Origin: Perkinsus olseni | Taxonomy: Eukaryota | Direction of reading: 5' to 3' | Length of the DNA: 45,391 bases | Assembly (NCBI GenBank): GCA_013115125.1 | Contig: JABANN010000265.1 | Location: forward strand, 1 to 45,391 | Part shown: positions 1,497 to 45,217 of the stretch, piece after piece | How positions within the stretch are numbered: position 1 is the stretch's first letter | Layout of the letters: the number at the start of each line of letters is the position of its first letter | Program-made: the position numbers and the translations under genes | Notes under the pieces: model-generated | The model's database searches: none | Told to the model about the DNA's origin: nothing | Seen by the model: the letters and a program-made list of their open reading frames with translations, nothing else

Positions 1497-1524
1497 CCGG
1501 CTCTACGCCTTAACGTCGTAAATA

Positions 1525-5155: not shown

Positions 5156-5313
5156 CTGAAGCAAGCTGACAAGACGCGCCACAAAATCTGCGCTGCACGC
5201 ATGTGCACGACTTTGGGCGCGCGCTACTTTCGGCGCAGAAATGAAACGGCTGGGGCGCTCAGCTGCTGCTCCGCTTTACTCTACAACGTACTCTATCAAT
5301 TTCAACTAGAACA

Positions 5314-6159
5314 ATGAGCTCTGAAGCGCCCCCTGCCGCAACCACTCAGCCTGCCACCACTACTGTCTATCAGCAGCCTATGTACAGTGTGGTCCAACCG
5401 CAGGGTGTGTCCTACGTGCCCTCTGAGTTCCAAGCTCCACAGGCGTAGGATGATTCTTAGTTGGTATTACATTAAAGTTCTTTTCTGTGCAGGTCTATGG
5501 ATCCGGAGAGTATCAAGCACCAGAAGACTCAGAGCCTCTCGATGCTAGATAGCCAGCTGAACATGGCCATGCAGACTTGCAAGAGCGACTACGAGCAGGC
5601 CAAGCAGCAGATCTCCCTTCGTGCCAACTTCGACTCGCAGACTGCAACCGGTGCCGTTGAACAGTCCCGTCAGCAAGCCTTGTTCGCTCTCGACCAACAG
5701 CATCAGCAGCGCCGTATGGAGATTGAGCAGAGAGCCCAGGAGCAGCGCATGCAGATCGAGTCCACTGCTAGCCAGCTCTGTATGCAGGCTCAGCAGCAGA
5801 AGCTCCAGAAGGAGATGAACGACCGCATGGCCAAGCTCCAGAAGGAACAGGCTGAGCGCGAGGCCAAGGCCCAGCAAACGATGCCCACGTTGCCTCCTCA
5901 GCCGACTGCCCAGACGGGATCCTACGTCCCCCCTCTTCAGTACAGTACCATCCCTGCCCTTATGCCCCAACCTATCTATACTACTGCCGAAGGCGGTGCC
6001 ACCACTACTTACTCGACGGTTGGTAACATCTCGTCCTATCCTGTCAACTACGGTGGTATCCCCGGGTATGCCGGTCAACCACAGGTCATCAGAACAGTCC
6101 GTGTGGTGAGCGATACACAGTCTGCTCAACCTGCCCCTACCACTACCGTCTCCAGTTAG
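5314..6159 (+). CDS. Gln-rich coiled-coil protein with P/T/Y/Q-rich termini (2 exons: 5314-5444, 5493-6159)
   Basis: A 48-nt gtagga...gtgcag intron keeps the frame. Codon bias is strong (CAG/GAG/AAG), and there is a long helical Q/E/A/R-rich core (DPESIKHQK..LDSQL..ALFALDQQHQQRRMEIEQ). Confidence 0.85.
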
Positions 6160-16830: not shown

Positions 16831-19450
16831 ATGCCCTCCTTGAAGAACCCCCTCCACCCCCCTGCTGTGCCTGCTTTCGACCTTTGGCTGGCCCTTTTCT
16901 GCGGAGTGGTCACATGCTGCTCCTCCTTCATGATCTTCACCCCCGCTGTCACGGAAGTCTTCTCGGCTAACTTTCTGGTAAGGCCCGTCCACGGATTCAC
17001 TCCCCAACGACGTATGTCCAATGCAGTAACTCGCCCTTTCTCAGATACTTGGCGTAGTGATAGCGATCATCACAGCGCAACTAACTGTAGCGGACGCGAT
17101 CGAGTGGACCGCCAAAACTGTGATAGCCTCGTGGTATGGCGCTGGCTTGGGATGTCTAGTGGTAGTATTCGTGACAGCGGTTAACCATGGGAACTACGAT
17201 CCTTATATTGGCACCTTGGTGGCCGTCCCCTTTGCTATTCTGGTCTGTCTGGCTGAGCAATCTAGTGTTACGTACTGCAAGTTGAGCTCTATTTATCGAG
17301 GAGATAAGGCTCTCTTGTTAATTCTTATTGTTGTTGTTTTCGGTGGTGACGACCCTTACTGGGTCGCACTCACCGCTGCACTCGCCTACACTATTGGGAC
17401 CACCATCCCCCTCCTCGGCACTCTGCTACTCTGGGCGTTCCGTATCCTACCCCAAAACGGGCCTCCAGCGATACCGATGTTCGCCCATACAGTAGCTGCC
17501 TACTTCCAAGAGACTACCGCTGTTGCGCCTGTTGGTGAAGTCCAGGAGCAAGAGTTGGACTATCTATGGACGCAGGTTAACAAGGCCTACATGGCCGCCC
17601 TCCGCACACCGGATCTTCACCTTCGCGGCATCATGTTCTCTATGGTATCCTCCCTGGGTACTGTGCGACACTCGCTGAAATTCGCCGCGTACAGTGAGTC
17701 AGCCGTAGAGTATCTTTGGGAGCCTTTAGACTTCACTCTTAGCACGATCAGAGTTGAAGTTATTTGTCGGCTGCGCGCTGGTCACGACGATCGCGTCTTT
17801 AAGGCCGACCTGGGTGAGCTGTCGAGAGATCTACGGCGGAGGGTAACAGAGGCTACGGCTCACTACATGGAGGCAAGAGCTGAAGGCCGAGCGAAGGCCA
17901 TAGCCGAGTCCGAGTTGGCGAGGTTCGGATTTGCTACGCGAGAGATTGCCCGATTCACTGCCTTGCTGGGTGATTTTATCTTCAGACTCGAGAACCCTCC
18001 GTCCAGGATTCGAACCGGATGGGAATTGGTTAAATTCAAAGTCAAGGAGTGGCTCAAAAGGCCCCTGTTCGAGTCGCTGAACCCACCGACGCCGTGGAGG
18101 TTTCGACTGGCGTTTCCTATCCGATCTGGTTTGGGTGGCTGTATAGCAGCATGGATTATACTGGGCATTGGGGAGGCCTTGGAGGAGGTCCAGCAGTACG
18201 GTTTGTGGATGCTGCTGCCCTGTGTCTTCTGCTTCCTACCTACTCCGGGCGCCTCGCTGGTGAAGGGCAGTCGAAGAATTATTGGTACTATTCTTGCTGG
18301 TATCATAGCGGTGGTGTGCGTCTCCATCCACCCCTACAACGATGCCGCCTTTCTTGTAGAGCTCTTTGTCATATCCTTCGCGGGCAAGCTCATGAAGTGC
18401 CATCCGAATGTCGACTACGCCGGCTTGGTCTTCGCCTTCACTTGGTCTATCGTCGGCCTTCTTGCAGGGACGGACGGCCATCTGGAGGAGGGTGACATGA
18501 TCCTCCGCTCCTTGTACAGGGCGGTTCTAACACTTTGCGGGGTCATCCTTGCGACGTTGATATCGGCCCTGGTCTTGCCCGTGTTTGCCTACGGCCGGCT
18601 TACCCGAGCCACGGCCCGCAGTCTGCAGATGATCGGTGACACTGTTGCTGAGTGTGTCGATAGGATACAGACAGCGACTGTAGCCGACAGGCTCCCGCCA
18701 GGCTCAGTGGACGAGCGGGTCGTCAGCATCGGTGATGAGCTTATGAAGCACCACCAGGAACGCTGGTCGCAGGTTATGGACGCTACCGTCGAGACCAAGC
18801 TCTTCTCTCTCCTCCGTGGCTATTTCAGATCCGAGGAGCGTCGGGTCAATGCGTCCCACATTATTGCGGCTCAGCCACTGCTTGATAGGCTCAACAGGAG
18901 GACTATGGTGGTGGTCAGTGCCGCTGCCTCCTTCCATCCGAGTTGGAAATCCCTGAGTCCTGAGCTGGAGCGAGCCTTGCAAGCTCTGACCGTCTTTGCA
19001 GAGGATATGCGAACCGCTGCCCAGGAACTCGCAGGGGTGACCTTGAAGCATGGCAGCCACCTTGGTCTGTGGGAGTCCCGCACCGGTAGGTTCGACGAGG
19101 CAGTCTCCTTGCTTGGGAAGGTTGAGCGTCTCATGGGCGAGGCTCGGCAGAAAATACAGAAGGCACGTAAGAAGGTGGCAAGTAACGGTGACGGCAATGG
19201 TAACTGTGTGCCGGAGGAGAGCGATCTAGATGACCTCTACTCGCTGGTTCGGGCCTTGGGTGTCTTCGTAGAAGCTTGGAAGCATGTTGAGTATATGATG
19301 TACTTTGGCTACTTGAGAGGCTCCATCAACCCCTTCGACTTAAAGACGATGCAAAGCAAGAGTATCGACATGAGCAGGCGGACGTCTACCGGTGGTGTGC
19401 CGCGGCTAAGGACTCACTCCTTCGCTCCGCCATTATCTGGACAAGTATAA
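16831..19450 (+). CDS. ALMT/FUSC (aromatic acid exporter) family transporter, copy 1 (about 850 aa; exons 16831-16977, 17045-19450)
   Basis: One phase-0 GT-AG intron. Motifs LW...CVFCFLPTPGASLVKGSRRIIGTILAG and YAGLVFAFTWSIV..YRAVL match the ALMT/FUSC_2 TM block (GATLxKGxNRxxGTxxxG; YGxxxFxLTF; R). Confidence 0.88.
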
Positions 19451-20208
19451 TTGCTACAATCAACTGTATAATCTTCATCGCCTCATGTAGTTTTTCATGC
19501 AGGATTTCGTATGAGCTCCGTGGGAAATTTTGATAACGTTGTATTCTCATCACCACTGCCGCCAAGGATTTTACTCCCTACTGGCCGTCTTGCGTTGCGG
19601 GCAGTTCCTAATTACGGTCGTCGAGTTGTATTGCACAGGTCTCAGGCAACGATGAATCGGGTCCTTGTCCCTTTCGGCGAAGTGCGGTGATGGAGGTACT
19701 ATTGTGGGGCATGCTGGAAGGTGGTATGCTTGGCATTTAATCATCATCGTGGCTTGTAATACCATTGCGACCGGAGTCGAACGGCAACTCGGTAGTCCAT
19801 AGAGGAATTGCGTCTGGATTCTTGCCGACAGTGGCGTGATACGACGATTGCAATCCTCATTTTTGTGTAAGAGTCGCTGCCTCTCATACTAGATAGTATG
19901 GTGACTGCTTCAGCTACGGCATGGCTATTGACATGGACTCTATCCGGTCCCTTCAGGAGTTTCGATCTAGGTTTGAGTAAGCGACAGAGCGTGCGAAGGC
20001 TGGGTAGGGTGGTCGCTACCCCAGAGGACTCTTTGAGTCGGAAATAGCTCAGTCAGGACTCGGGAGGAGCTGATTGAAGTCTTGCAGGAGATCTCGGTTG
20101 TGAACTTGGATTTTTGCGCCCTGCCTTGCAGGACCTGTACTGGCGTGTTCCCAGGAGGGAATGCTCGCGGTACCTTTCTTCCCGATAGTTTTGAATTTCT
20201 TTGTATGC

Positions 20209-22849
20209 ATGCCATTCACTTCCTCGCCGCCGTCCATTCTATCATATGATTTCTTTTCAGCGGTGCTGTCTGGCCTGGCAGCCTGCGCTTGCTTTTATGC
20301 CGGCCTACTGCCGATTGGAGACTTATCAGGGTTGTCGGTAATACCTGGGGGAGGGGTCTGTTCTAGGAGTAATGGCTCGTATTAGGAGCGTGTCCTTTGG
20401 CAGGTATTAGCTCCCGTGTGGGCCGGTGTCGTTACCTATATCGACATCAAAACAACTGCTGATTGGTGCTTAAAGAGCATAGCCGCAGCCATCATCGGCG
20501 CTGTGGTTGGCATCGGTGTCGGCTCGGCAGTCCATGCCTTCGTCTCAGTAGATTTCGTACAGTACGTCGGCGTGGTAGTTATGATACCATTCGCAATGGT
20601 ATTAGCGTTGAGCGAGCCTTCGACGGGCTGTAAGCTGACCCACGTTTATCGGTATGATGTGGCTCTGGTGACCTCATATGTGGTCGTTGCCTTCGGTCCT
20701 GGGGATGTTCTCACGAGATCACTTGTGATTTGTCTGAGCTTCGTCGCTGGCTCGTTGGTGCCACTGGCTCTTGTAGTGCTCGCTAACGCTGTTTGGGAAG
20801 TTCCTCGGGCGACGGCCCCTGCCCTGCCAGCGTTCGCGACTCGCGCTGCCGGCTTCTTCGAGATGCTGGCCACCCTTGCGATGACGGGAGAGTGCCAGGC
20901 GGAGTGGCTAGACAAGGAGCGCCTAGAATTCGAGAAAGTCTGGGGAGAGGCAATGAGGGTCGTGACCACAGATCCTCACTTGAGGGCTGTCATCTATCGG
21001 ATGGCTGCCGAGCTTTTCGCCATGCGGAAAACTATAAGGGGCGGGCTGTACAGCGAAGGCATTCTGGAGGTCATGTGGAACTCGCTGCTGGCGGATATTA
21101 CCGAACTGCGCCTTCAAGTTGTATTCTGGTTGCGAACGCTCACTAGGCCGAGAAGTCGGGACCCGAAAGAAGTCGAGGGACCCCACTTGAAAGAGAACGC
21201 AGCGAAACTTGAGGCCTTGCTGCTTGAGAAATCACTGGACTACAGCCGTCTGCAGGTCTCAGGCCGATCGAGGATCGTGCCCGCTGAGGATGTGGTGCGC
21301 TTTCAATATGCCTGCTCAGCCATGACCAGGTTTGCTGTCCTCGCGCAGGAGTTCCATGAGATACTGCGAGCTAAAGAAGAGGACATGGACGGAAGCCGCA
21401 GAGCGGTAATACAGGGCATAATTTCGTGGCGCGCGGTCAGACGTGACTTTTTTATTCCAGAGGTTGAGCAGTTTTTGGAAGTATATCAAGCGCGTTTGGG
21501 ACTATTGGAAGCACTGGCTACGGATTCCATGGTTTTCCAGCGGTCCCTTTAGCGGGAAGATATCGTCGAGACTGGCATTTCCAGTTCGCCTTGGTCTCTC
21601 TCTTACAATAGCGTGTATATTAGTTATAACCTGGGCCCGAGCGATGCCCTCCATGGCCCCTCACGCCCTGTGGGGCGTCCTCCCGGTTATGTTCTGTCTG
21701 GTACCGACGGCTGGAGCATCTTTGGTGAAGGGAACTCGTCGTATGGTGGGTACTGTCTTGGCGTCCGGTATAGCCATCGCTTGTGTGGCGATCCATCCTC
21801 ACAATATGGAAGCATTTTTTGTTGAACTTTTCATTATAACTTTCGTTGGTAAACTGGCTAGCTTCAAGCCTAAAATTGGCTACGCTGGCCTAGTATTCAG
21901 TTTGACCTGGACGATCATTGCGATCATGCCAGCGACCTTCGACGGTGACGAGCCATTCAGGACTGTACTCACCTCGGCGCTTTGGCGGATGGCGCTGACT
22001 AGCACTGGTGTAGCAGCGGCCACAGTGATGTCTTGGATCGTTTTCCCGACGTTTTCTACAACGAAAATGGAGCGCCTGACGGCCTGGGAGTTGGTCTCGC
22101 AGGTAAATTTGGTCACCACTGCCTTGGAGCGGCTCGTAGGGATTCATCAACCCGAAGCCAGCTCGGAAGCGGTGGGACCGGAGGTTGGCGGTGTTCTCTA
22201 TTTGTCCAGCGCTGAGCGCCACGCCTTGGAGTTGGATGCCAATGCCGAAGCCGCGATACTTGGAAAATTGAGGGCGCTGGGGCTCCCGACTCTGCGAGTA
22301 TTGGACGTGCAGGGGGATATCGACCGACTTGGCCGGAGCGCTATAGTGGCCCATGTGGCCATGACTGATTGCGCTATGGTCATCGAGGACCCAGCCGCCG
22401 GAGAGCTCTTAGAGCCACTCAAAGGCCTTTTATCGGGCATTGTGATGGCCCTGAAAGATTCGGTGTCGAGGGTTGTATTGTTCATAGTAGACACTAGCAA
22501 TCTGATGCCTGATGGACTGCAGAGTTCGGCACATATGCGAGACCCTGGGGTGCAGCTGCAACGGACGTATGATGCCTTTGTGAGACTGAGAGAGAAGCTT
22601 ATCACTTTGCCAGTGGATGGCAACTCGGACCTCATGGCCAACGTCCTCAGCTCTGGCGGCATCCGCTTTTACCACGCTATTTATACACTCTCGCTGTTCA
22701 TCGAGGACTGGCGGGATATTGAATCTTCTCTGCGCGGTTTTGATGGTGGACCGGCGAGAGATGTTGATGCTGTAGACGCTGTGCCTCTTGAGGTGGAAGA
22801 TCTTGCTGTCGCTCCGGTGTCCCTCCCTAGAATTGCCCCGACATCATAG
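20209..22849 (+). CDS. ALMT/FUSC family transporter, copy 2 (about 839 aa; exons 20209-20337, 20404-21405, 21461-22849)
   Basis: Two phase-0 GT-AG introns join the ORFs in frame. Motifs GASLVKGTRRMVGT, YAGLVFSLTW, WRMAL. Confidence 0.88.
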
Positions 22850-22996
22850 CGATGCCTCGGAACGTCGGCTGATTTGTTCTCGTTTGTAAGTGTCATATGA
22901 TTTTTCAACCAACCTTTCAACCCTGCTTGCGTTCACCGGGGCTACTGAGTGAGTGGTCGGACGCCCTGTTTCCCGTAGTGGCTTTATTACTGTAAT

Positions 22997-25684
22997 ATGA
23001 TCGATCAACTGCCATCTATACCAATTTGGAATCTCCTCACTGCTATATACACGGGCGTGCTTGCATGCCTCTGTTCCTGGGCTGTCTTCCTCATGCCTGG
23101 GGGCCACGGAGCTAACATTACGGTACTAGGGAGGGATAGGCGCGGCGATCGGGGTCCCTTTGGGGCCTGCTAGCTACGATGGAGTGTATTGCCGTTCCCC
23201 CGTGTTCTTAGGTCCTCGCTCCTATCTGGGCCTTGATCACCGCTTTCTTGGACGTCAGCTCCAACTACGATCAGTCATTGAGGTCTCTGGTTGGTGCGGT
23301 CTTGGGACTCTTCTGCACGGAACTAGTGGCCCTACTGGTTACAGTATGCTCCACCACCGGCTACAGCGCCTGGATCGGCGTCATCGTCAGCTTCCCACTC
23401 ACGTTCCTACTGGCAATAGGCGATCCGGCTAGTGGTAGCAAGCTGTGCAAGCTATTCCGGTCGGACGTGGCGATGGAGTCCATGTATATTCCCTTGGCAT
23501 TCCCCAACGGCCAGCCCTTCTACCACGGGCTTCTCAGCTCGGGTGCATTTGCGGTTGGGTCTGTGGAGACGATTGTCGCTACTACCGTTCTGAACGCTTT
23601 CAATCTGCTACCTAGGTCTTCGGTCCCAGCCATACCAGCGTTTGCAAGAGCAGCTGCGGACTACTTCGAGACACTAGCCACCTACGTCACCAGCGGCACG
23701 GATCATCTGAACTTCATCGACCGCCAGAGAGCTCACTTCGATGTGGCATGGCGTGCTGCAGCAAAGGCGGCGCCCAACCCGAAGATTCGGAGCATCATCT
23801 ATCAGATGTCCTCTGAGTTGATCGCGCTTAGACAGACGTTGCGGGACGGCTCCTACAGTCAGAGCATTCTCCACTATATCTGGCATCCTATAGTACCTGA
23901 CTTGGTGGACCTGAGGCTAGAGGTAGTCTATTGGCTAAGGCAAACGGCTATGCCTTTGAGGCCCGGAGAGGATATCGATGAGACGGAGCTCCTAGCGCTA
24001 GCGGAGCAAGTGCAAGGGAGGTTAACTGACGAGTCATTGTTATACAGCAAGGCTGTGGTGTCGGGAGAGTCGGCCTTGTCGCCGGCGAATGACATCGTTC
24101 GGTTCCAGTTTGCCTTCTCTCTAATAGCACATTTCGCCGTACTCGCAGATGAGTTCCACACACTAATCAGGGAATACGATATGAGCCTTCCAGAGAAGAC
24201 CAATAGAGTAAGTAGGGTATCCTAGGTTGATGCGTGGTTCTGATGAATTCTTCCGCTCCGAACGCCCCGTAACGATCATCTTTTTCGGAGATTATTTTTG
24301 TCTTTTTCAGTTTGACTGGTGGGGCCGACTGCGCCGCTATCTCGCCGAGTGTAAGGAGTATTGGATCCATTGGTGGCACCTGCCCTTCTGGGCCTACGGC
24401 AATATGACTCTCAGACAAAGGCTTGTGCATCCGTTGAGGTTGTCTCTTTCGATCACCCTCTTCGCACTGCCTCTCATTGCCTGGGCTCAGGGGGAGCCTG
24501 TAGTGGAGTCCTACGGTTTCTGGGGACTAGTACCGCTCCTCTTCTGTCTTTTACCGACTCCGGGTGCGTCACTGGTCAAGGGGACCAAGCGTATCATTGG
24601 CACACTACTAGCAGCTGTCACTGCCATCATCTGCGTATCGGCTAATCCCCGCAATATCCCCGCCTACGAGGTCGAGCTGTTCGTAGTGGTCACCTTGGGC
24701 AAGCTGGTCTCGCTGTATCCCAGCATCGACTACGCCGGTACCGTCTTTGCCTTTACGTGGATGATCATTGGTATCGTCCCTAGCCTCAACGAAACTTATG
24801 ACAGAACGCAGATGATCTACTGGTCCCTGTGGAGAGTGGCTCTGACCCTGATTGGCACTTTCGGCGGAACCGTGATCACGTGTTTCGTCTTCCCGACCTT
24901 TGCTATGACCAAGCTCAACAAGGAGTCTGCCCATGAGCTTCTTACCCAGGCCGACATGGTCGCTGGTTCTATCGAGGAGCTGTGCCGTATCGAGAAGGGC
25001 CCCGCGGTTAATCCGGATAACCGCCGGTACGAAGTTGGAGATTCCTTCTGGAAGTCGTGTGATACCCGCACTGGTCTGACCCCAGAGGCCAGGGCTGAAG
25101 CGCTGGTGTTGGGGAAGACTTCGTTCGTGGACGACACCACTCGATCTGTGATCAGAATTCAGGGGCATATCAGCTGCATGGGAAGGAGCTCCTTGGTGGC
25201 CCATGCTACACTGGCTGACTGCACACGCGCTATTGCGGAGCCTTCTATTAGCTTGGTGCTGGATCCACTACGCGACGATCTCTCTAAGCTGGCGGCGTCC
25301 ATTCGGGACTCGGCCTCGAAGGTGGCACTGCAGGTCCTGGACGATCACAGTTCGAAGAAGATTATAGTGGATGGGGACTTGGTCGGCAGTCAAGTAAATG
25401 TCGAGATGCAGAACATAGTGGACCACTTCGTACGCATCCGAGAGGGCATTCTGTCAGGAAAGGACGCCAACCTCGACGCCTTCACCAAGGCCATCCGGGC
25501 CGGCCTCTATACCCTGTACCACAGCTTGTACACGTTGAGAATGTTCACCGACGACTGGGTCAGGATTGAAACAGTCATCCTGGGGTACAAACAGCTTGGT
25601 CCAAAACGGACAAGAGCATTAAGTGGCGCCCCCAAGGAGATGGTCAGCCGTGCCAGAGTTCATCAGCCCAACAACAAGCCGTGA
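22997..25684 (+). CDS. ALMT/FUSC family transporter, copy 3, subfamily A (about 831 aa; exons 22997-23122, 23212-24207, 24311-25684)
   Basis: Phase-0 introns. Motifs GASLVKGTKRIIGT, YAGTVFAFTW, FRSDVAMESMYIPLAFPNG. Confidence 0.88.
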
Positions 25685-25949
25685 GCTATTTAAAATCCAT
25701 CCTCTTCAGTGGGTAGATGCCGACGACGTTCTCAGGGGCCTTCGGTGTGGTAGGTTATTCTCGACACTATCTTCACTGTTCAACGTCGAGCTCACTGTTG
25801 TTGCCTCGTTGGTAGTATTACCACTTTGATACCGTGCATACATTATTAGCAAAAGTGCTTTCGAATTATATCTGCGTTGTGGCTTCTCCGTCTACCTTGC
25901 AGCGTCGAGTTCGATTGCGATTGGAGAATCGGCTAGGTTTCGACCGAGG

Positions 25950-28741
25950 ATGGTCGACGAGCCGCGTGTTTCGGTCAGCATGCCGCTTTCCAGCGTGAAT
26001 GGATTGCCTACTCTCACCTACTTCCAGCTGGCCAACGCGCTCTCCAGCAGCCTGGTGGCCTGTGGTGTAGCGTCGGCACAGTTTCTGCCGTGGTTTGGAG
26101 ATCGATTCAGCAATCAGCTATTTGTAATAGAGTGGTCGGTCTAGAAGTGGAGTTCTTGTACTTTGTCTGATTTCCGTGCTCACTAGTGAGTCACTAGCGG
26201 CTAGTCACTAGCCGCTAGTGGTGTATTCCTAGGAGGCTATGTGGGCATTATCTGTAGCGGCTTGGATCGTGAATCTGTCTATGCACGGTGATCACTCATT
26301 ATTATTTCAGGCCCTCTCGACAGCATGGGCACTTTCGTATACCTCACTAGACTATTCCTTCTCAGTGGATTTCGCATGGAAGACATACATTGGAGCGGCC
26401 ATCGGAGCGGCGCTCGGGGCGGTGGTGGCCTATGCTACAGCGCCTCTCAACGGTGACATCTACAGTCCGGCATGGTCCTGTCTGTTCGGACTGCCCTTCT
26501 GCTTCATTCTCGCTATGGGGTGCCAGGGGAAGGCGTCGGAGGTGTACTCTTATACGAGCGCTCTCCTCAGGATGTACAGCATTCTGGCATTTGGTGAGGG
26601 CGAGCCCTACAACAAGGCCCTCTTTATCATACTAGTTGGTTTTTTCTCTGATATGGTGCCGATGCTCATCGTTTCTGTCCTCAATTGTTCCAACCTTCTG
26701 CCGGTTAAGTGCTCACCGCCGCTGCCGCGCTTTGAACGCGCGTTGAAGGGCTACCTGGAGCTGTCGGTCTTCCATCTGGCGGATGCGGTGGACCATCAAA
26801 ATGAGTTCAATCGGAAGCGGAATGACCTGGTCGAGGCGCACCGCGCTGTTGTGAGAGGCAACGTTTCGAAGCCGCTGAAGCTGGACGTGGCGAACATAGT
26901 CGGTCTCCTGTATGGCTTCCACGCATGTACTACAGCCGAGGGCTTTGGGGCGCAAGCGCGGGCCCACTTCTGGGAGCCACTGCGAAGGGACATGTGGGAG
27001 CTGGTTTCCCGTGTTGGTAGGGCGCTGACGGAGTCTTTCGATCCGGACCTGGTGGAGAGTCTGAGGACACTAGGCGGCCGGGTGACGCAGCAGATTAAAA
27101 GCTTGACGGTCGAGTACAGCCGGAACGTAGCGGACGCTAAATGCGCAGTGTTTTCTGGGAAGGAGTTGGCGCGAATAGAGATGGCCTTGCTCACAGTGCC
27201 ACGGTGTAGTATAATAGTTGCGGATTATGTCGAAAAGAGACGCAAGGAGGATTCGACTCGCGATCCGATTACTTGTCAAGTAATGTCGGGCGGTGGCGCG
27301 CTTGTCCTTTGCTGCAAGCGCTGCCGACGGGTTGGTCTTTTTTCAGTTACCATTGCCGTCGTTCGTTCGGGACTTCCAAGATTGGCTTCGGAAGCCCTGG
27401 TACCCTCCCACCCTCTCTTGGTGGGAGCGCATCCGCTACCCTTTGCGACTCACCATCTGCCTTCAAGCCGTCGTCTGGCTAGCAGTTGGTCTGGCCACCC
27501 GGTTCGAGGTTCTAGCAGCGGAGGGGTGGTGGATAATTGTTCCGGCGATCTTATGCTCGTTCGATGCTTTCGGCTTGACGGTCATCAAAGGCGCGCGACG
27601 GATATTTGGTATCTTCCTAGGTGGGGTCCTTGCGCTGGTACCTGTTGCGATTCATCCGGTTAATCGGCCAGCCTTCTTGCTGGAGCTCTTCATCGTCGGT
27701 AGTATCACCAAGCTGGTCACTGACTTCCCCAGCGTCGACTACACTGGTCTGCAAACCGGGGTCACATTCATCATTGTGGGGTTTGCTGATGGTATCAACC
27801 CGGGCCTGAGGGAGGATGAACGCTTTCAACTGGCCGGGTTGCGCCTCCTTTGCAACACGGGTGGGCTGGTTTTATTCGTGCTAATGACTTTGCTGACGCG
27901 CCCGCCCTATTCGGGTCACCTTCTCGCCAAAACCACATCGCGAGAGCTCGGCAGCATGGCCGATTACGTGTCGTCGGTTGTGAGGGCATTGCGAGCTGGG
28001 CCTGAGGTAGCCTTTCCAGACAGGGTGGAGAAGGGTTTGTCTCTACTGGACGCTGATGCCGCGAGAATAGCGAAGATTCCCTCGGTCGAGACAGAAGCTA
28101 GAGCATTGAAGGTATTGCGAATAACTACTACTGGCTGTGGGGTGAAGCCAAAGAGACTCGCTGCTGCGCAAACCCACATGTCGAGTCTATTGCACAGCAT
28201 TGCCGTGGTCTTCACAGAGTTCCACAACTGCGATCGCAAGATGGGCCCGGCGGCACGGCAGTTGCTGCTTGAGCCGATATCGGGCCTCCTGGAAGATTTC
28301 GAAGAGTCCTTGAAGGCGTCTGCCGAGGAGCTCAGCGTCGTATTGACGCGGAAAGTGTCTGCTAGTAGAGCCATCAGAGCCGCCCGGGATGTTTTAGAGG
28401 CCTACTTGCGGCTGGCTGCGGCTTTCGAGACGGTTCGTGCAGAGCTGTTATTTAGGCGAACGTGGGCTACTTCGGGGGAAGTGATGGCGTCGACAAAGCT
28501 GGCTGAGGTCGTGTCTGGAGGCGGAGGGGTCGGAGTGCACGTGGCCGTGTATACTCTAGGGCACTTCATCGAAGATTGGATAACGGTCGCTAACAGCTTG
28601 CTAGGTTCGGATATAAGGCCTCCCAACGACCCGCCGTCTGAAAAGGATTGGACGACGTCGGTGGACTCCGTTTCACCGGGCTCTTGCATCCTCACAGTGC
28701 CGAGGTGTGTGTCGGAGGGTTCGTTGCTACGACGGAAGTAG
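25950..28741 (+). CDS. ALMT/FUSC family transporter, copy 4, subfamily B (about 845 aa; exons 25950-26123, 26311-27279, 27347-28741)
   Basis: Phase-0 introns. Motifs GLTVIKGARRIFG, YTGLQTGVTF, C-terminal LLFRRTW..GGGVGVH. Confidence 0.87.
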
Positions 28742-29154
28742 GAGAATCTATAAATCTTTGGCGTGCGTTCATCATGAACGTCAAATTAGTATTCATGGCT
28801 AGTCGAGCCGCCGACTGGTAATATTCATGGTTCATTTTTTCTTCTTCATCGGGTCTCAACGGCCCCCTTTGTTTGAAGAGCTCGTTGCCGGCGACGTTAT
28901 CATTTTTTCAATCTTCATAGTATTGAAAACATTGACGCAGTCGCGTTCACGCTGCGAAGGTATACATTTACTGAATGGTCACTGGCTGAACAAACCCAAA
29001 CTGAATGGTCTCTGCCAGATAACATTCAGTTCGGGTTTGTCCAGAGACTCTCTGGGCAGCTCTACTGAGAGAGGAGGAATGGTCCGCCCCGTCACGGGCT
29101 CTCCTTCGTTTGATCGCATTTGTCAGTGCTGGCTTACGCTCGGCTTGGCCCACT

Positions 29155-32002: not shown

Positions 32003-32297
32003 CTACTAATCACTTTCACATGTTTGTTGTCCAAGCTTATCGGGGGCTTGCTCGATGCGGATTTTTACGGTCGTGCTGGGCTGAAGGCCCTTTGCATGCA
32101 CAGTAGAAGTCGAGCATATATGAATACTTATATCCGAACGCGCTTATCGCGAATAATTTTTTAGGCCGGTCAAGAGGCGGGCTTTGAGTTATGGTAGGCG
32201 GAGCTCGGTCCTGGAGCGAGTTCCGATTAACCTCGCCCCAAGTTGCCGCCATCGTTTTTCTCTAGGTAGTTCCCATGTCCATTGGTTTGTGGTAAAA

Positions 32298-34954: not shown

Positions 34955-35093
34955 GTTGGTATCTGTCCTCTCTATTATTACTCCATAATATATTGGCTTT
35001 GCCGCATATTATTTTCCTTCACTCGATAGTCTTCTGTTGGCCTCTTCCTGGCAGTGGGCGTGGATTTTTCGATTCTCAGTGTTCCACTTGACA

Positions 35094-37994
35094 ATGGTTC
35101 AGAGGCTCCCGGCAGTGGACGTCTATAAACTCCTCACTGCTGCGTATACAGGGCTGATGGCCTGTCTCTGCTCTTGGGCAGTCTTTATCATGCCCCATGG
35201 ACAGGGCGCGAACATGACGGTGAGCGGTAGTGACCATTGCAATTTCACTGCTCGATAGCTCCCTGCTTTGAATTGCGGATCTCATCTCCTTGCCAGGTAC
35301 TCGCTCCCATCTGGGCATTAGTGTCAGCCTTCCTGAACCTGAGTGCCAACTACGACCAGTCGCTGCGGTCGATCGTCGGAGCTCTCATCGGCCTCGGTCT
35401 GACTCAGCTCATCGCCCTCATCATATCATCTGCATCATCCTCTGGTTATAATGACTGGATCGGCGTGGTCGTATGCTTCCCCGTCTGCTTCTTTCTCGGT
35501 ATCGCGGACCCCGCCACAGGTTGCAAGATGTCCAAGGTCTTCCGTTCTGACGTTGCGATGGAGTCCATGTACATCCCTCTCGCCTTTCCCAATGGGCAGC
35601 CATTCTTGCACAGCTTGTTAACATCTGGGGCCTTCATCGTCGGCTCTGCGGAGACACTCGTTGCTACTACTATACTTAACGCGTTCAACTTGTTGCCGCG
35701 CCATGAGGTGCCTCCGATACCGTCCTTTGCGAAGAGAGCAGCTGACTACTACGAGACCCTGTCCACGTACTGTACTAGTGGTATGCAGCATGCTGGCTTC
35801 ATCGATCGACAGCGGGCGGTCTTTGAGGAAGCTTGGAGAGCGGCCTCGAGGGCTGCCCCGACGCCGGAGCTACGGAGCGTGATATACAGGATGGCCGCGG
35901 AACTGATAGCCCTTAGAACTACTTTGAGGGACGGCGCCTACAGCCCCGAAATCCTGGAGTACATCTGGCATCCGCTGGTAGCGAACATAGTAGAGCTCAG
36001 GCTGGAGACGGTATACTGGCTGCGTCGATCGGCAAGCCCGATTGGAGACGACGGCGCCATTCATGAGACTGATCTCGTTGAGCTCGGGAACCAGATGAAG
36101 ATTCGTCTGAACGAGCAATCGCTAATTTACGGCACAAAGGTTTTCTCCGGCGAGTCTTCTCTCTCTCCAGCCACCGACATTGTGCGCTTCCAGTTCGCTA
36201 TGTCGCTGATTGCCCGGTTTGCAATGCTATCGGATGATTTCCACAGATTGGTCAGGGAGTACGAGAAGTCACTTCCGGAGACTAAGGGATGGGTGAGCGT
36301 GAAGGCGTGGCAGAAAGGACGGGTCGGCTGGCTACACCACTTCCCAATCGAGAAATGTTTTCGCTTCGTGTGAATTTAGTAAGTGCCTCGGAAATTTGAA
36401 TGTTGTCAAGCCAGTTCCGTCGAGATTGAATTCGTGACGAAATTTGATTTAGAATATGCCGTTCTACATCGAAGTAGTCGAGATGTCATTTGGTCGAGAA
36501 TTGGTGTAGATGTAGATCACTATGAAATGTCCTTATGGCCTCGTTTATCAGATACACTGGCCGTCAAGGCTCCGCCAGTACTTCGTGGATTGTAAGAAGT
36601 ATTGGATCGACTGGTGGCACTTGCCGTTCTTCGCTTTTGGTAGTATGACGCTCACCCAGAGATTCATCCACCCATTGAGGCTTTCAATCACCATAACTGC
36701 CTTCGCCCTCCCCCTTGTGGCCTGGGCTCATCAAAACCCTATAGTGGAGATCTACGGCTTCTGGGCGCTAGTTCCGATACTCTTCTGTTTCCTTCAAACT
36801 CCTGGAGCGTCCCTGGTTAAGGGGACGCGGCGGATCGTTGGTACTATCCTGGCTGCGGCTATAGCGATCATCTGCGTGTCTGTTCACCCCTACTCTCCTG
36901 CTGCATTCGTGGTGGAGATGTTCGTCATCACCTTTGTCGGTAAACTGGGCAGCCTCTACCCGAGCATCGACTATGGTGGTACAGTCTTCGCCTTCACGTG
37001 GATGCTGGTGGGCATCATCCCAACACTTGGCGAGGGGGAGACGCGCGAAGATATGATACTGTGGTCTCTCTGGAGGGTTGCGATGACTCTGATCGGTACT
37101 ATCGGTGGAACTATAGTGTCAATGTTTGTATTCCCTACTTTCGCAATGGAGAAGCTGAATCGGGAGTCTGCCCACGAGCTGCTTGAGCAGGCCGATATGG
37201 TCGCACGAGCTTTGGAGCAGCTGTGCGCTCTCGAGAAAGGGCCTTCTGTGAATCCCGAGGACCGGGGAGTCGAGGGAGGGGACGAGTTCTTCAGATCGAG
37301 TGATACTCGCTTTGCGCTACTTCCCGACGCGAAGGCTGAAGCTACTGTCCTCAACAGGACTGCGTTTGTAGACGATACCAACCGGGCTGTCCTGACTGCC
37401 CAGGGAAAGATCGACCGTATGGGTAGGAGTGCCCTAGTCGCGCACACTACGTTGGCTGACTGTGCTCGGCGCTTGGGAGAGCCTTCGATATCGTATCTGC
37501 TGGAGCCACTCAAGGGTGATCTGTACAAGTTTGCAACAGCATTGAGGGACTCGGCATCTCAAGTGGCGTTGACCATACTGGATGACTCGTGGCGGCCCTC
37601 AGCCAGGAGTGGGAATAAAGCGGTCACGCGCGGCAGGTTGACGAGCAGTCAGGTGAATGTTGAGATGCAGCGAATAATAGACATCTTCGTCAAACGGCGA
37701 GAGGAGATGCTGGCCGGCGAGGAATGCGATATCGAGGGGTGGTCGCGAGCGGTGAAGTCGGGCTGCTATTCACTCTACCATGCCGTCTATACTTTGCGGG
37801 TGTTTGCCGATGACTGGGTCCAAATGGAGACTATCATTCTCGGCTTGGCCCCTATGGTGGAGATGAGGGCCCGTGCGCTGAGTGGTGCGTACGTCCCTGG
37901 TCCGAGCGCCCTGGTGTTGAAGACGCCACGGCATAGCACGCTGAGAAGCTTCACGGACGCCTCCTCTGAGGAAAACGCCCGAGATTTCGATTGA
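35094..37994 (+). CDS. ALMT/FUSC family transporter, copy 7, subfamily A (about 854 aa; exons 35094-35219, 35297-36292, 36552-37994)
   Basis: Phase-0 introns. Motifs GASLVKGTRRIVGT, FRSDVAMESMYIPLAFPNG. Confidence 0.88.
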
Positions 37995-38513
37995 GATTCG
38001 TGTAGGATACACGGTGCATTCCGATCTTGATACGTGAACTGGCATGATTCGTGATAAGACTAGCGTGTCATGGCGACTCCGTTTGAATAGGAAACGCCTT
38101 TCTTGTGTTTACCAGCGTTGTTATCATTATCATTGGTCAGACTTTAACGAGTTTCACTTCTGAAATTTGTCGAGTTGGCGCGACCGGGCGGGCAACGTCG
38201 GCTGCCTTGGCTGGTCGGGTTTCTAGTTTCGTAATTGCTTTCCGTTCTGATTAAACTCAGAAGATTCCACAGTCAGGTGATCTTCGCTCAGCCAAGTTCA
38301 GCATGGAAAATACTGATTGAACGGCGGTCGAGTTTTCTGGGGGGGGGCGGTGCGAGGGCCACAGAGCATTCAGTCTGGGGAGGAGTAGATGAAAGTTGTA
38401 CTAACAGGTTGGGAATTCACGGGGCTTAGTGGGTCGCCAGCCTCTGGGCGGCGCTCCTTTGTGTACCAAGCATGCGACGCTGTCGATAAAGTCTTGAACA
38501 TTGTGTGCTTAAG

Positions 38514-39032
38514 ACAGCAGTGACTGTGAGCGGGCTCCGTGGTTTCTTACCCGCTATGTTTGGTATACCGACTATACTGCCTGTTAGTTACCTTTTGCTA
38601 GATTCTGCAAACCCCGCGCTGAAAGTGCGTCCCACCCAACACTCGCAACTAAACTCGCCCACCCTTGCCAGAAATGTAGCCTGCGGCTCCAAATTGGTAC
38701 TGTCGTGGCCCCACCACCGACACACCCAATTTGGACAAGTAACTTCCCCCAAACCCCGCAGGCTAACATTCGGCACTCTATCCGAAGTCTGTCGCCGAGC
38801 TCGTCGAGGTCACCTTTGCCACACCGTGTACTACAATACTCATACAATCTATACAACCGCTCATCACCAGCTCTCCGGATCCTGCAGCCAATCATCCCCC
38901 GGCCTCGAAATCTCGTTGTGGTGTGAGCTGTGGCTCACAGCAGTGACTGTGAGCGGGCTCCGTGGTTTCTTACCCGCTATGTTTGGTATACCGACTATAC
39001 TGCCTGTTAGTTCCCTTTTGCTAGATTCTACA
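38514..39032. repeat. Pair of 96-bp direct repeats (38514-38609, 38937-39032; 2 mismatches) flanking about 330 bp; TRIM/mini-LTR-like insertion
   Basis: Direct comparison of the two copies. Both end in ...CA and there is TG just upstream of each. The spacer is non-coding and contains inverted repeats. Confidence 0.85.
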
Positions 39033-39201
39033 AGATAAATACGAGAGTAAGACAATCAGTGATCAGTTTCTACTACTATCGACTACTGTTATACTTGGTT
39101 TTCTCATCACTTGGGATTTGTCCGTACTCTCTTCGCCGGCCTCCGAGAAATCCTGTTCACGTTTTCGGCCCTTGGCAGTTTCTGTTGTGATTTAGTAGTC
39201 T

Positions 39202-41862
39202 ATGGTTGAACGACTTCCTTCAATACCCGTTTACAAGTTGCTTACGGCGTTGTATACGGGCGTGATGGCTTGCCTCTGTTCGTGGGCCATCTTTTTGGCC
39301 CCTGAGGGCCGTGGAGCGAATATGACGGTAAGGGGACGAGTGTCCGGTAGACCGCTTCAGCTTAGGGAGTGCTCAGGTACTCGCTCCGATCTGGGCATTG
39401 GTCTCTTCTTTCCTCAACATCCACGATAACTATGATCAGTCCTGTAGATCAGTAGTAGGAGCCTTTATAGGTCTCTTCTTCACTGAGTTGATCGCCATCA
39501 TCATAACGGCCGGCAATACCGTCGAGTATTGTGACTGGATCGGTGTCGCTGTGGCCTTCCCAATTTGCTTTCTGATGGCATTGGGGGATGCAGCGACAGG
39601 CAGCAAGCTTTCTAAAGTGTTTCGTTCCGACGTGGCCATGGAAGCCATGTACATCCCCATTGCCTTTCCCAACGGCCGCCCGTTCCTGCACGGGGCTCTC
39701 ACTGCCGCGGCTTTCATGGTCGGCTCGGCGGAGTCCTTTATTGCCACTAGTATCCTCAACGCGTTTAATCTTCTTCCTCGGAAGGACATACCGGCGTTGC
39801 CGGCTTTTGCGAAGCGCGCTGCTGATTACTATGAAACACTCACGGCGTATTGGACGAGCGGTATGGAGCATGCTGATTTCATCGATCGACAAAGGAAGGT
39901 ATTCGAGGAGTCCTGGAGAGCGGCCTCTAGGGAAGCGCCGACGCCGGAACTTCGTAGTGTTATCTACCGTATGGCGTCGGGCTTGATCGCACTGAGGGAT
40001 ACCATGAACGATGGTCGGTACAGCGAGGATATGCTGGAGCATATATGGCACCCGCTCATGCCCGATATCGTTGACATGAGACTGGAAGTTGTGTACTGGT
40101 TGCGGACGACTGCGAAGCCTATCAGGGATGACAAGGAGATCGAGCAGACGGACCTCATGAACCTGGCGACCGAGTTGAGTAGCCGGCTGAGCCAGGCGTC
40201 CATCACCTACAGCGAGAAAGTCGTCGAGGGGGAGTCCTCGTTGTCGCCTGCGAACGATATTGTGAGATTCCAGTTTGCCATGTCCCTGATCGCTAAGTTT
40301 GCGATCTTGTCTGACGAGTTCTATAATTTAGTTCGCCGGCAGCAGAAGGAGGAGGCACATTCTCTAAAATGGGTAAGTACCTTCGATTCATTTTCACCGT
40401 TCATTCTTGTTCATTTCAAGCCCTTTGCTGGTTCTAGTGCCCTTCGTGCATAGCGAATGGTCTTCCTTTTCAGTATAACTGGGGAGGACGATTCTGTCGT
40501 TATATGAAGGAGTGCAAGGAGTATTGGATCCATTGGTGGCACCTGCCCTTCTGGGCCTACGGCAATATGACTCTCAGGCAGAGGCTTGTGCATCCGTTAA
40601 GGCTGTCTCTCACCATCACCCTATTTGCTTTCCCCCTAGTGGCTTGGGCTCATAAGGAGAAGGTGGTGGAGACCTTTGGGTTCTGGGCCTTGGTGCCCCT
40701 ATTGTTCTGCTTCCTGGGTACTCCCGGTGCCTCCTTGGTCAAGGGTACCAGGCGTATCATTGGTACCATCCTCGCTGCCTGTTTGGGTATGATTTGCATC
40801 GAAGCCAACTACAACAGCGTCCCTGCTTTCATTGTGGAGATGTTCGTTATCGTGTCTATTGGTAAGCTTGGTGCCCTCTACAGCAATATCGACTACGCCG
40901 GTACTGTGTTTGCATTCACGTGGATGCTTGTGGGTATTGTTCCTACGTTGGGCTCGGAGCCGACTGAGAGCGATATGATAACCTGGGCACTGTGGCGTCT
41001 GTTGATGACTCTGATCGGTACCCTCGGCAATATGGTCGTCGCCACGTTCGTATTCCCGACGTTCGCCTTCGAGAAGTTGAACGGTGAGACGGCTCACGAG
41101 CTTATGGCCCAGTCTCAGTTGGTGTCGATGGCGGTCGAGCAGCTCTGTGCTGTAGAGAAGGGTCCATCGGTGAACCCTGATGACAAACGCATAGAAAGCG
41201 GCGATGAGTTCTTCAAGTCTAGTGATTACCGATACCAGCTCCTACCTGACGCCAAGGCTGAGGGGCTTGTTCTGAACAAGACCGCCTTCATTGATGAAAC
41301 CACACGCGCAGTGATAGGATCCCAGTACGATATTGATATGATGGGCCGTTCTGCTATGGTGGCGCATACTAACATCGCCGATTGCACGCGCCAGATCGCC
41401 GACCCGACGATCTCCCTGCTACTGGACCCTCTCCGTGAGAGCCTCCATAAAGTGGCGGTAGCATTGAATGATTCATCATCTAAGATGGCGCTGAAGATAC
41501 TTGACCAGAGCAAGAGAGGACATAAGGATAGCGGCTCCTTTGAGCTTGCTGATCAAAGCAGCCAGGTCAACGTCGAGATGCAGCGGGCCTTGGATATTTT
41601 CGTCGCCAGGAGGGAAGTCATGCTCTCGGGCGAGAAGAAGAATCTTGAAAACTGGGCCAGTGCCATTCAAGGCGGCCTCTACGGTCTCTTCCATTCACTG
41701 TACACGCTGCGGGTGTTTGTCGACGAGTGGGTTCATATGGAGACTAGGATCTTGAACCTCAAGCCCGCTACCCGTAGGTCTCGTGCACTCACTGGTGCCC
41801 CGCAGGAGTTGGTCCGTGATATCTCCAAGGCCACTCGACATGGTTCGAGAGATAAGCTCTAA
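39202..41862 (+). CDS. ALMT/FUSC family transporter, copy 8, subfamily A (about 836 aa; exons 39202-39327, 39377-40372, 40474-41862)
   Basis: Phase-0 introns. Motifs GASLVKGTRRIIGT, FRSDVAMEAMYIPIAFPNG. Confidence 0.88.
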
Positions 41863-42425
41863 GTAACTATGTCGCATCTACGTCTCTTGCATGTTCCTCG
41901 GTTTATCGTCTCAATTTCCTAAGGAGGTTCTCCTCGCACTTAAGTTTCTCCCAGTTCCTGCTCACTGTATAGTTGATCTTTCGTCGCCTTACTAAGTACC
42001 TCATATCGTTCGCTGCGGGGTCATTTCACTCAGCATCAGATAAGCGAAGTATTTCGCGAGCTCCCGCGAGCTCTTATTCGTGGAGTAAAAAAGAAGCTGA
42101 GGCGAACCTTTGCTATGTCGAAGTGCGAGTCCTGGACGGCTCAAGCCAGTCTTGGTCTATTGATCTATACGCGTGTTCATGGCCTGGTCCGCTTCACAAT
42201 CAGTGTGTGACTAATACTATTGTGTCGATTCTTGGTATCGTCCACTCGAGCTCGTTCATCGCCGAGCTCGATCCCTGCCGAGTTAACATTCATTTCCTCG
42301 CACGGTCTTGTCGCGTTGAATCTCTCTTTTCGGACTTTCTTTAAATTTGTGGTGCCATGCATGGTCGGGTCAGAGTAATTTCCACCGTATATGCTCCTGT
42401 TGTTCAACCAGATTGTTGTGGATGT

Positions 42426-45217
42426 ATGTCGCGGAAGACTCACAGCACTCCAACGTCTTATATCCTCCCTCAGTATTCCCAGTATCGAGTGCTGTTGGCG
42501 GCATACGCCGGGCTAATCGCGTGTATATGCGCAGTCCCACAGTTTCTCCCCACCATGCAGGAAACTCTGTTGCAACATTTATATGTAAGACAATAGCTCG
42601 TTTTTGCCGCCGCTCTCTACGAATTCTCCAATCGTCTTTTGCACTGTATCGGGGTTGGAGGTACTCCAGAACAATTCTTGTCCTAACGTACCGATAGGCG
42701 CGATCAATGATGGGTTTCATAACAGCTATCTTACTTCTGTCACTTTCATGCTTCAGGTCCTCGGTATCTTGTACGCCTTCATATCAACATCCCTGGATGC
42801 CAAAACGTTTATGATGCTTCCCTGGCGTATCATCCTCGGTGTACTGGCTGGCGCTGTATCAGGATACATTATTGTTCTGGTCGTGACTGCCATGGGTGGT
42901 GGGGTTTATAACCCTTTCTATGGAACTTTACTCATGTCTCCCTTCTTGTTAGTATTCAGTCTGGCCGAGCCGACCCTAAAGTGTAAATTCTCCCAACTCT
43001 TCAGCTACATAGCTGCCAACGTGATTATGGTATGTATCGTGAGTTTCTCCGGGCCAACGCCTCAGAAAGCCTTCGTCTCGGCCATGTTCGTTGGAATACT
43101 CTCTTTCGTGGTGCCGATTACCTTAACAACGACACTCAATGTGCTTGGGTTGCTCCCTCGCACGGCAGCTGAACCTATGGTCATGTTCGAGTACGCTCTC
43201 GGCAACAACTTCAAGTCGAATGCCTGCTATATACTGGACGGTGACCTCCATAAGCGAGAGCTTGATGAGCTGCGGCGAGCCCTCGTGACCGCACGCAAAG
43301 CCATACTGGCGAGTGTCACCGATGCCGACCTTCGACTGTGTATCTTCCAACTGACAAGCACGTTATATGGACTCCGACGGGCCTCCGGTTGGGAGCCCTT
43401 CAGCGAGGCGGCGGTGACACACCTGTGGGAGCCGATGCAGATGGAGCTGAGAAATCTGATGACCTTTGTGACCGCCGTGTTAAGACACGAGGTGGAGGTG
43501 GACGACATTCCTGATTTGAAATCCACGGCTAGGAATGCGCTCCTTCGAATCAAAAGGATAAGCATCGAATACACCCGAGCAGTGGCTGACCAGAAATCTG
43601 TTGTGATCTCGACAAGAGAGATGGCTCGGGTCGAGTTTGCCATGCTCGCTATTCCGAGATTTGCTATCCTTGTGAACCACTATTTCGAGCTCAAGGCTAA
43701 GCGGAGCCCCCCGAAGCCCTCCCTAATGAGATACGTAAGCCGTCGGATGGGCAACCGCTGTTGTTCTTTAGGCATAATTCTCTGATATTCAATATTGGTT
43801 TCTGTTCTAGGTACCGATTCATACTCCACTGAGGCACCCCATACAGTTCCTGGAGCAACCTATATGGCCACCGGGCACTTCTCTACGCGACAAGCTGGCC
43901 TTTCCTCTGAGGTTGACCATCTGCTTGACGCTTATGCTCGAAGCTACTCTAGCTGTCGGTCAGGTCTACCCCATCCTTCTTATTGAAGGTCTGTGGATCT
44001 GTCTCCCTGCGCTTACTTGTTTCTTGCCAACGGTTGGTCATGCTTTGGACAAGGGTTTCAGACGAATGCTCGGTGTTACTATCGGAGGCGTGGCGGCAAT
44101 ACTGATTGTCTACGTTAACCCTATGGATGTTCCTGCGGTGATGGTAGAGCTCTTCATAGCTGCGGCCTTGAGTAAGTTCTTTACCATGGACCCTACCATC
44201 GGCTACCTAGGATTCCAAACGACTGGCACCTTCTGTGTGGTCGGAGTATGCAATGCTCTCGATCCAACCCTAAGTGGTGGAGAACGGATGGAAGCAGCTT
44301 TATACCGAATGCTCTTCACGCTGATCGGATTGGTGATCTCCATCTTCCTCTCTCTGGCTACGTTCCCTTCCTACTGTGGACGCCGTCTGGCGATACAAAC
44401 CGGCAAGGAACTCTCTTGTGCCTCAAACATGGTATCGACTTTGATCAAGGGGCTGGCGTCGAGGAAGCATGACGGTTCGAAGGAACCGGAAGGTCAGCCA
44501 CTGCCCACTGTGTCCGAAGTGGGTGCAAAGCTTTTGAAGGAAGACAACTGTCGCGCAGCAGAACAGCGGTGGTTCCGCGAGGAAGCCACGTATTTGAAGC
44601 TTTTCAATATTTCTTCCACACGGTGCGCTGTGAAGCCCAAGTGCTTGGGTTGTGCCCAAGATGAAGTCACCAGGCTCAACCGAAGTGCAGTCGTGGTGAG
44701 CCAAATTATCTGGGGCTGCGATCAAAGAATGAGTGCGGCAACGGACAACTTCCTACTCGAGCCTATCCGACCTCTATTAGGAGATCTTGCGGAGCATCTA
44801 CAACGTTCAGCTGTTGAACTGGATCGTTGTCTGCACGGTGTTGTGGATACTGGGCCAGCGATCGAGGCGACAGGTGAGACTCTCGAGGCAATGCTCTACC
44901 TGAATGCCGAGTTCGATGAGAGCAGAACTAGGTTACTCTTCACACGAACTTGGGCGGCCAAGGGTGAAAAGATGGATTCAACTCACATGATCGAAGTTCT
45001 GAGTAGCGGTGGCGGCGTTGGCGTCCATGAGGCCATACACGCCATCAATGTCTTCGTGGAAGACTGGGTCGCAGTTGTCAATCAGCTACTGGGATGCCAA
45101 GTGAGCGTACCGCACGCACCAGTCGAGGAAAGTGTTATGTCTTTCGGGAGTTTCGACACTACTACTGGATCTGATGATGAAGGTGTTCGCAGGAGAGCTG
45201 AGACTTGCGCGTATTGA
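42426..45217 (+). CDS. ALMT/FUSC family transporter, copy 9, subfamily B (about 847 aa; exons 42426-42584, 42757-43734, 43811-45217)
   Basis: Phase-0 introns. Motifs FLPTVGHALDKGFRRMLG, YLGFQTTGTF, LLFTRTW..GGGVGVH. Confidence 0.88.

Follow-up and report, generated by a model that had tools for sequence, protein, structure and literature searches.

The clam parasite Perkinsus olseni carries an array of nine plus-strand genes (g1 to g9) whose predicted products are related to the malate channels of plants (ALMTs) and apparently hold both halves of a channel in one chain. The array lies at 16831-45217 of contig JABANN010000265.1 (assembly GCA_013115125.1). The window analyzed here is this entire contig of 45,391 nucleotides, filed as G000:C1825 in the 39.9-Mb assembly of 3353 contigs that was searched. 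By analogy with the plant channels, it is fairly likely that the nine proteins would act as fused, pseudo-dimeric and asymmetric channels for small organic anions, and that old lineages among them have become specialized.

The superfamily assignment is carried by the C-terminal half of each protein. Pfam ALMT (PF11744) and FUSC_2 (PF13515) both score above their curated cut-offs in all nine C-half open reading frames (ORFs), with the best ALMT match spanning just positions ~8-231 of the 471 in the profile. Searched as a profile, the family matches GmALMT12/QUAC1 (E = 3.3e-15), AtALMT9 (4.4e-14) and AtALMT1 (6e-10) in the PDB, and no other match there was significant. Along with these profiles, the pore arginines of transmembrane helices 3 and 6 (TM3 and TM6) and their W, K, Y and T partners mark the predicted proteins as members of the ALMT/FUSC (ArAE) superfamily. 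They do not qualify as plant ALMT proper, as YccS, MdtO or AaeB, or as the fungal ArAE_2_N/BRE4 type. The NCBIfam cut-offs for YccS/YhfK, MdtO and AaeB were missed, five of six Perkinsus proteins matching weakly (16-48 bits vs. 468-821) and the sixth not at all. The fungal-type profiles PF10337 (ArAE_2_N) and PF10334 (BRE4) were found neither in the 17 exon ORFs at E <= 0.1 nor in six full proteins at E <= 0.01.

None of the eight N-half ORFs passes the Pfam ALMT or FUSC_2 cut-off, and FUSC_2 is weakly present in two of them (E = 0.0025 and 0.016). Profile-to-profile comparison shows this half to be a degenerate second ALMT module homologous to the C-terminal one. When profiles of the two modules, built from 41 and 45 rows of a 46-row alignment, were compared in hhalign, the N- and C-modules aligned at 96.8% probability (E = 2.6e-10, 328 columns), or 98.6% in global mode, and crossed controls that set a membrane part against a helical part gave 0.05-0.10%. 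Each chain is thus laid out as an N-module (membrane plus helical domain, residues ~1-370) and a C-module (~375-810), and in eight of the nine genes intron 2 coincides with the boundary between them.

The gene models were picked by splice signal and homology to paralogues from 17-5916 open-frame models enumerated per gene. All 17 introns of the array are GT..AG and in phase 0, with a single intron in g1 and two in each of the others, at positions common to g2-g9. After splicing, none of the proteins, whose lengths are given in amino acids (aa), contains an internal stop, and the spacers measure 139-1207 base pairs (bp):

16831-19450, plus strand: g1, 850 aa; intron 16978-17044, second intron absent; Pfam ALMT 71 bits
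20209-22849, plus strand: g2, 839 aa; introns 20338-20403 and 21406-21460; 99.6% over 839 aa to public protein P0175
22997-25684, plus strand: g3, 831 aa; introns 23123-23211 and 24208-24310; P. chesapeaki orthologue FOL47_010445 (90%)
25980-28741, plus strand: g4, 835 aa (845 with the ATG at 25950); introns 26124-26310 and 27280-27346
29155-32002, plus strand: g5, 835 aa; introns 29293-29413 and 30389-30607; orthologue FOL47_010447 (57%)
32298-34954, plus strand: g6, 847 aa; introns 32445-32507 and 33477-33526
35094-37994, plus strand: g7, 854 aa; introns 35220-35296 and 36293-36551; probable spliced-leader acceptor 35078-35079
39202-41862, plus strand: g8, 836 aa; introns 39328-39376 and 40373-40473; orthologue FOL47_010450 (88%)
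42426-45217, plus strand: g9, 847 aa; introns 42585-42756 and 43735-43810; orthologue FOL47_010453 (partial model, 66% over 258 aa)

For g4, the start codon could be the ATG at 25980 or the one at 25950. Intron 1 of this gene contains a short 14-base tandem unit (26189-26220) that is also self-complementary.

A preliminary description made from the letters alone had reported nine same-strand paralogues over 28 kb that splice into uninterrupted ORFs of 831-854 aa despite heavy divergence. The models above agree with it throughout, pairwise identity between the paralogous proteins being 21-64%. Its assignment to the ALMT/FUSC type stands, with both of those Pfam profiles over cut-off in all nine, but the match is limited to the C-terminal half and the second, degenerate module had been missed.

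Evidence for splicing comes from transcripts. The stretch 20150-40149 was compared with four of 24 sequencing runs, of which X1 and X2 are RNA by guess and X8 by its record; the fourth, X21, gave no matching read in the ~4% of the run sampled. All 13 introns predicted in this stretch are joined at the exact predicted coordinates in run contigs (13/13 in X1, 11/13 in X2 and 11/13 in X8). The remaining four of the 17 (the g1 intron, g8 intron 2 and both g9 introns) lie outside it and rest on public predicted proteins of equal length (P0001, P0181 and P0020). The joint of g2 intron 2 (21406-21460) occurs in X1 only, and one X2 contig retains this intron. X2 also has no joint for g5 intron 2 (30389-30607), with contig depths of ~141 vs. 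31 for the two halves of g5; such depths were not used for ranking genes. Some public models likewise stop at intron 2 (P0030, 400 aa; P0173, 464 aa; P0170, 383 aa). Retention of intron 2 would yield products of 379-498 aa consisting of the N-module only, and it may be either a regulated isoform or noise. At g7, the adapter at the start of one X2 contig is followed by nine letters which, joined to the genomic AG at 35078-35079, match the 3' end of PmaSL1, a Perkinsus leader sequence given in the accessible part of PMC3101222. This candidate acceptor sits 14 bases upstream of the g7 start, and the one contig suggests that g7 is trans-spliced as a separate message.

Recognizable pore residues are found in the C-module. 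In AtALMT1 numbering, taken from the alignment to the PDB matches, the equivalents of W57, K76, R80, Y136, T144 and R165 are kept in all nine C-modules, and R80 and R165 are also present in the 13 other C-modules of the genome (13/13). The accessible part of PMC11842843 assigns W57, T61, R80, T84, T144 and R165 to the pore or the selectivity filter and reports that malate currents are abolished by T147A in ALMT9, a position that, as the PDB-match alignments read, probably corresponds to T84 of AtALMT1. T84 is kept in five of the nine C-modules and lost in all of g4, g5, g6 and g9. In the N-module, TM3 contains a single conserved basic residue, compared with three in the C-module; the TM6 arginine is lacking, and R80 and R165 are absent in either of two possible registers. 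This module retains W, K/R and G at conserved places of TM2-TM3 and contains acidic residues within TM5/TM6 of g3, g7 and g8 and within TM6 of g4 and g5. Since its conservation between species matches that of the C-module (88-93% vs. 84-94% for g3; 91-92% vs. 84-88% for g8), the N-module is not decaying. A literal WEP in the N-module of five of the nine genes was considered as the plant motif of that name and set aside, as it falls one helix later and is probably a different motif.

The array belongs to a larger family. The Pfam ALMT model matches the genome in at least 23 places, namely the nine array genes, two on contig C385 and 12 on other contigs. The two C385 copies are probably alleles of g8 and g9. 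Among the 12 elsewhere, seven are complete two-module genes with no ALMT neighbor within the 9-20 kb examined and five are truncated at contig ends. A careful tree of 40 C-modules places the 30 Perkinsus rows together in a single clade (98/97), whose deepest split sets g1 and g4/g5/g6/g9 (91/93) apart from g2, g3/g7/g8 and most of the dispersed copies (99/98). The array holds four old lineages (g1; g2; g3/g7/g8; g4/g5/g6/g9), and these are interleaved along it. The idea that the array is a single clade apart from the dispersed copies was rejected (approximately unbiased test, p = 1e-99); this group was drawn by position and defined after the quick tree had been viewed.

That quick tree covered 158 domains with a midpoint root, near-duplicates and fragments having been omitted by a fixed list and domains below 135 aa or 25 bits dropped. 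The rows nearest to Perkinsus are environmental two-module proteins, followed by a clade with Amphidinium that is sister, under the midpoint root, to the Perkinsus-containing clade (Shimodaira-Hasegawa-like approximate likelihood ratio test, 94). Plant-type, dictyostelid and bacterial-type rows are separate from Perkinsus, where the plant label is inferred from ALMT scores of 288-524 bits in nine of ten rows and the bacterial label comes from Pfam/NCBIfam profiles on a subset, not from taxon records. Recent transfer from plants or bacteria was rejected because the 30 Perkinsus rows form one clade beside environmental two-module relatives, and the trees favor vertical descent with expansion within perkinsids over recent import.

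Conserved gene order shows that the array, as far as its orthologues can be assigned, is older than the split between P. olseni and P. chesapeaki. A single 88,181-bp P. chesapeaki contig carries FOL47_010445 (g3), 010447 (g5), 010450 (g8) and 010453 (g9), followed by 010455 and 010456. The order is shared for the four of nine array genes that were matched; orthologues of g1, g2, g4, g6 and g7 were not retrieved. Identities to these orthologues (90% for g3 and 88% for g8 vs. 57% for g5 and 66%, from a partial model, for g9) indicate very unequal rates within one array. Nine genes are a minimum because the contig ends only 174 bp beyond g9, a tail in which no start of a tenth gene was found. FOL47_010455 and 010456 are orthologous to the fragments G000:C1121:1-1237 (63%) and G000:C113:152843-153629, at the end of C113 (77%). 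As these two P. chesapeaki genes come after the g9 orthologue, the P. olseni array probably extends beyond this contig and comprises at least eleven genes, with the two fragments as genes 10 and 11. There is one discrepancy: a different set of P. olseni records separates g2 and g7 by just three locus numbers, perhaps because models were merged or because the array is shorter there.

The array genes are under purifying selection where tested. The ratio of nonsynonymous to synonymous divergence (dN/dS, Nei-Gojobori) ranges over 0.08-0.27 in six of the seven paralogue pairs and is undefined in the seventh; unsaturated comparisons with the second copies of g8 and g9 on C385 give 0.09, 0.21 and 0.42. 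Because synonymous sites between paralogues are near saturation (proportion of synonymous differences, pS, 0.72-0.75; dS infinite for g4/g5 and for g1 vs. C354), the paralogue values are rough and the C385 comparisons are the usable ones. What the preliminary description took for an old, selectively maintained expansion in a parasitic alveolate is thereby borne out, given orthologues in order in P. chesapeaki and dN/dS well below 1, also between paralogues, as is its expectation of expression (spliced transcripts at all 13 introns tested). The exporter activity and the physiological roles that it suggested (organic-acid efflux, pH/osmotic or host-metabolite handling) are putative. Its nine-gene count is right for the window but describes only part of a family with at least 23 genome matches.

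Taken together, these observations suggest how the proteins may work. Plant ALMTs assemble as homodimers around a single central pore, and a dimer is predicted for a mycobacterial FUSC protein, so that a two-module chain may supply both pore halves itself. By this analogy, the two membrane domains of one chain would come together in the manner of the plant protomers, with one pore at the center between them. The pore would be asymmetric, with carboxylate-binding arginines contributed by the C-module alone. Small organic anions (of the malate, succinate or 2-oxoglutarate class) or inorganic anions would pass down their electrochemical gradient, with flux most likely directed out of the cytosol. 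The four old lineages would be kept for differing substrate, gating or location and not for extra dose.

Several observations weigh against this reading. The membrane parts of the two modules align with each other at only 61-70% probability and the helical parts at 14-19%; because the parts alone align weakly, the homology signal stems from the whole module. The register of N-module TM2-TM3 and the pairing of the modules are likewise inferred from profiles. Within the C-module, T61 and N79 are substituted in all nine proteins, N79 by Arg or Lys, and the plant WEP motif is absent, with just an invariant Glu close to its expected position. Another glutamate, in TM4, is shared by all C-modules of the genome (22/22) but by none of the plant-type (10), dictyostelid-clade (7) or bacterial-type (48) modules compared, and 19 of 33 environmental relatives have Gln there. 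The bacterial-type FUSC proteins with two modules retain R80 and R165 in each module (24/24). The Perkinsus pore thus has fewer positive charges than bacterial-type or plant channels, and its cargo may differ.

These features lend some weight to an alternative that we regard as unlikely though far from negligible, namely that the chemistry of the pore has changed. The C-module arginines would be paired with acidic residues, and the channels would pass zwitterions (osmolytes of the amino-acid/taurine type) or a proton-coupled anion flux, and would help to regulate volume or pH in a host whose salinity changes. The single conserved basic residue of N-module TM3 against three in the C-module, the missing TM6 arginine, the acidic residues of N-module TM5/TM6 (g3/g7/g8) and TM6 (g4/g5), and the TM4 glutamate, common to the 22 genome C-modules and missing from the plant-type, dictyostelid-clade and bacterial-type ones, would all fit. 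However, the acidic residues may or may not face the pore, the carboxylate site of the C-module is intact in all nine proteins, the frequent Gln at the TM4 position suits a hydrogen-bond role, and no paper was found on osmolyte transport in Perkinsus itself. A broader version is, if anything, a shade more doubtful. It would see a perkinsid asymmetric single-chain ALMT pore, with half the arginines gone and acids added, whose old lineages have each adapted to solutes of their own, with zwitterionic osmolytes or proton-coupled export among the possibilities; the family would have its conserved cradle in the array, and the array would form a main part of salinity and acid handling in the clam.

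It is quite unlikely that the N-module is a non-conducting accessory domain and that two chains form a symmetric, plant-like pore through their C-modules. All recognizable pore residues do lie in the C-module and the N-half passes no Pfam cut-off, but a mere accessory would hardly be expected to match the C-module in conservation between species (g3 and g8), to hold its W, K/R and G positions in TM2-TM3, or to accompany the C-module in each of the seven complete genes on other contigs. That the array arose merely through frequent tandem duplication and is kept for dose, with copies functionally alike, is more improbable still, even though tandem arrays are described as common in dinoflagellates. 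Identities of 21-64% and near-saturated synonymous sites indicate that the copies are not homogenized as those of a dosage array would be; one-to-one P. chesapeaki orthologues persist at unequal rates (88-90% vs. 57-66%), and the T84 change is lineage-specific. The last alternative, an assembly artefact or a set of pseudogene relics, is refuted. Public models ending at intron 2 and the X2 contig that retains g2 intron 2 might have pointed to it, but the 13 tested introns are all spliced, internal stops are wanting and gene order is conserved in a second species. In self-blastn, the long gene-to-gene DNA matches are all at or below ~68% identity, and those of higher identity extend over only 56-101 bp; because no long match exceeds ~68%, the array does not consist of collapsed or duplicated assembly copies. 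Fused, asymmetric anion channels thus remain the explanation that we favor.

Other features of the window lie outside the nine genes:

38514-39033, no strand assigned: 326-bp insert in the g7-g8 spacer, flanked on either side by a 97-bp direct repeat (the two 98% alike)
2-610, minus strand: open frame running off the contig start, retrotransposon Gag-like by eye; no Pfam match at E <= 0.01
3238-4631, plus strand: multi-exon tetratricopeptide repeat (TPR) gene with a weak TPR_2 match (E = 0.008), which presumably resembles BBS8/TTC8
5476-6159, plus strand: intron-free glutamine-rich ORF of 227 aa, probably coiled-coil; no Pfam match
14263-14694, minus strand: 2-oxoglutarate-Fe(II) oxygenase domain (PF13640, 27.3 bits vs. 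a cut-off of 27)

The insert at 38514-39033 has a 98% copy on contig G000:C2805 and partial copies on four further contigs, and it resembles a mobile element inserted recently.

The superfamily and the two-module layout are already known. As for the claim that the array is uncharacterized, no paper was found on Perkinsus ALMTs or a Perkinsus malate transporter in the open-access literature, supplements excluded, but several array members already carry an automatic ALMT annotation in public databases; g1, for instance, is 100% identical over 850 aa to P0001, 'Aluminum-activated malate transporter 1 [Perkinsus olseni]'. The word 'malate' does not occur in the accessible part of PMC2868825. A 2023 review argues, in its accessible part, that ALMTs are not plant-specific, citing single Sphaeroforma and Dictyostelium proteins (PMC10490231); the string 'alveolat' is absent from its main text, and its Figure S1/S2 could hold alveolate sequences. 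The ~20 diverged two-module members in a protist parasite offer a natural series for the role of the second module and of the lost arginines, and they point to the movement of carboxylates or osmolytes as a leading question for the physiology of Perkinsus.

Several known systems resemble the Perkinsus proteins in part. The plant ALMT/QUAC channels (AtALMT1, 7vq3; GmALMT12/QUAC1, 7w6k; AtALMT9, 8hiw; PF11744) share the six-helix membrane domain followed by a helical domain, as well as the six residues from W57 to R165 that all nine C-modules keep. In contrast to the Perkinsus chains of 831-854 aa with two modules, they are single-module homodimers (matches of 493-598 aa); they also form a clade of their own in the quick tree, and the Perkinsus C-modules are without T61, N79 and WEP. 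The bacterial two-module FUSC/ArAE proteins (YccS/YhfK, TIGR01666/7; MdtO; AaeB; PF04632, PF13515) have the same two modules per chain and FUSC_2 over cut-off, and the C-terminal part of the YccS/YhfK model (~384-566 of ~700) matches the Perkinsus C-module. They differ in carrying both arginines in both modules, although YccS/YhfK proper are not among the identifiable rows of that comparison. Mycobacterial Rv2571c, a single-module FUSC protein of the same superfamily, ties FUSC to ALMT-like carboxylate channels: according to the accessible part of its report, it is predicted to form an ALMT-like dimer, and it exports 2-oxoglutarate in a manner that depends on the TM6 arginine (bioRxiv 10.64898/2026.03.10.710584). 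Unlike the Perkinsus C-module, this predicted homodimer lacks the TM3 arginine; the likeness is taken from its published description. Finally, the long FUSC_2/ALMT proteins of dictyostelids, dinoflagellates (Amphidinium) and fungi (the last with ArAE_2_N + FUSC_2 + BRE4) also have their canonical module in the C-terminal half, and they are Atlas feature neighbors at 0.89-0.96 for the whole protein; for the N-half, a value of 0.88 to the ArAE_2_N cluster serves as a lead only. Their N-halves do not match the hidden Markov model of the Perkinsus N-module, just as the Perkinsus proteins have no ArAE_2_N or BRE4 match in Pfam.

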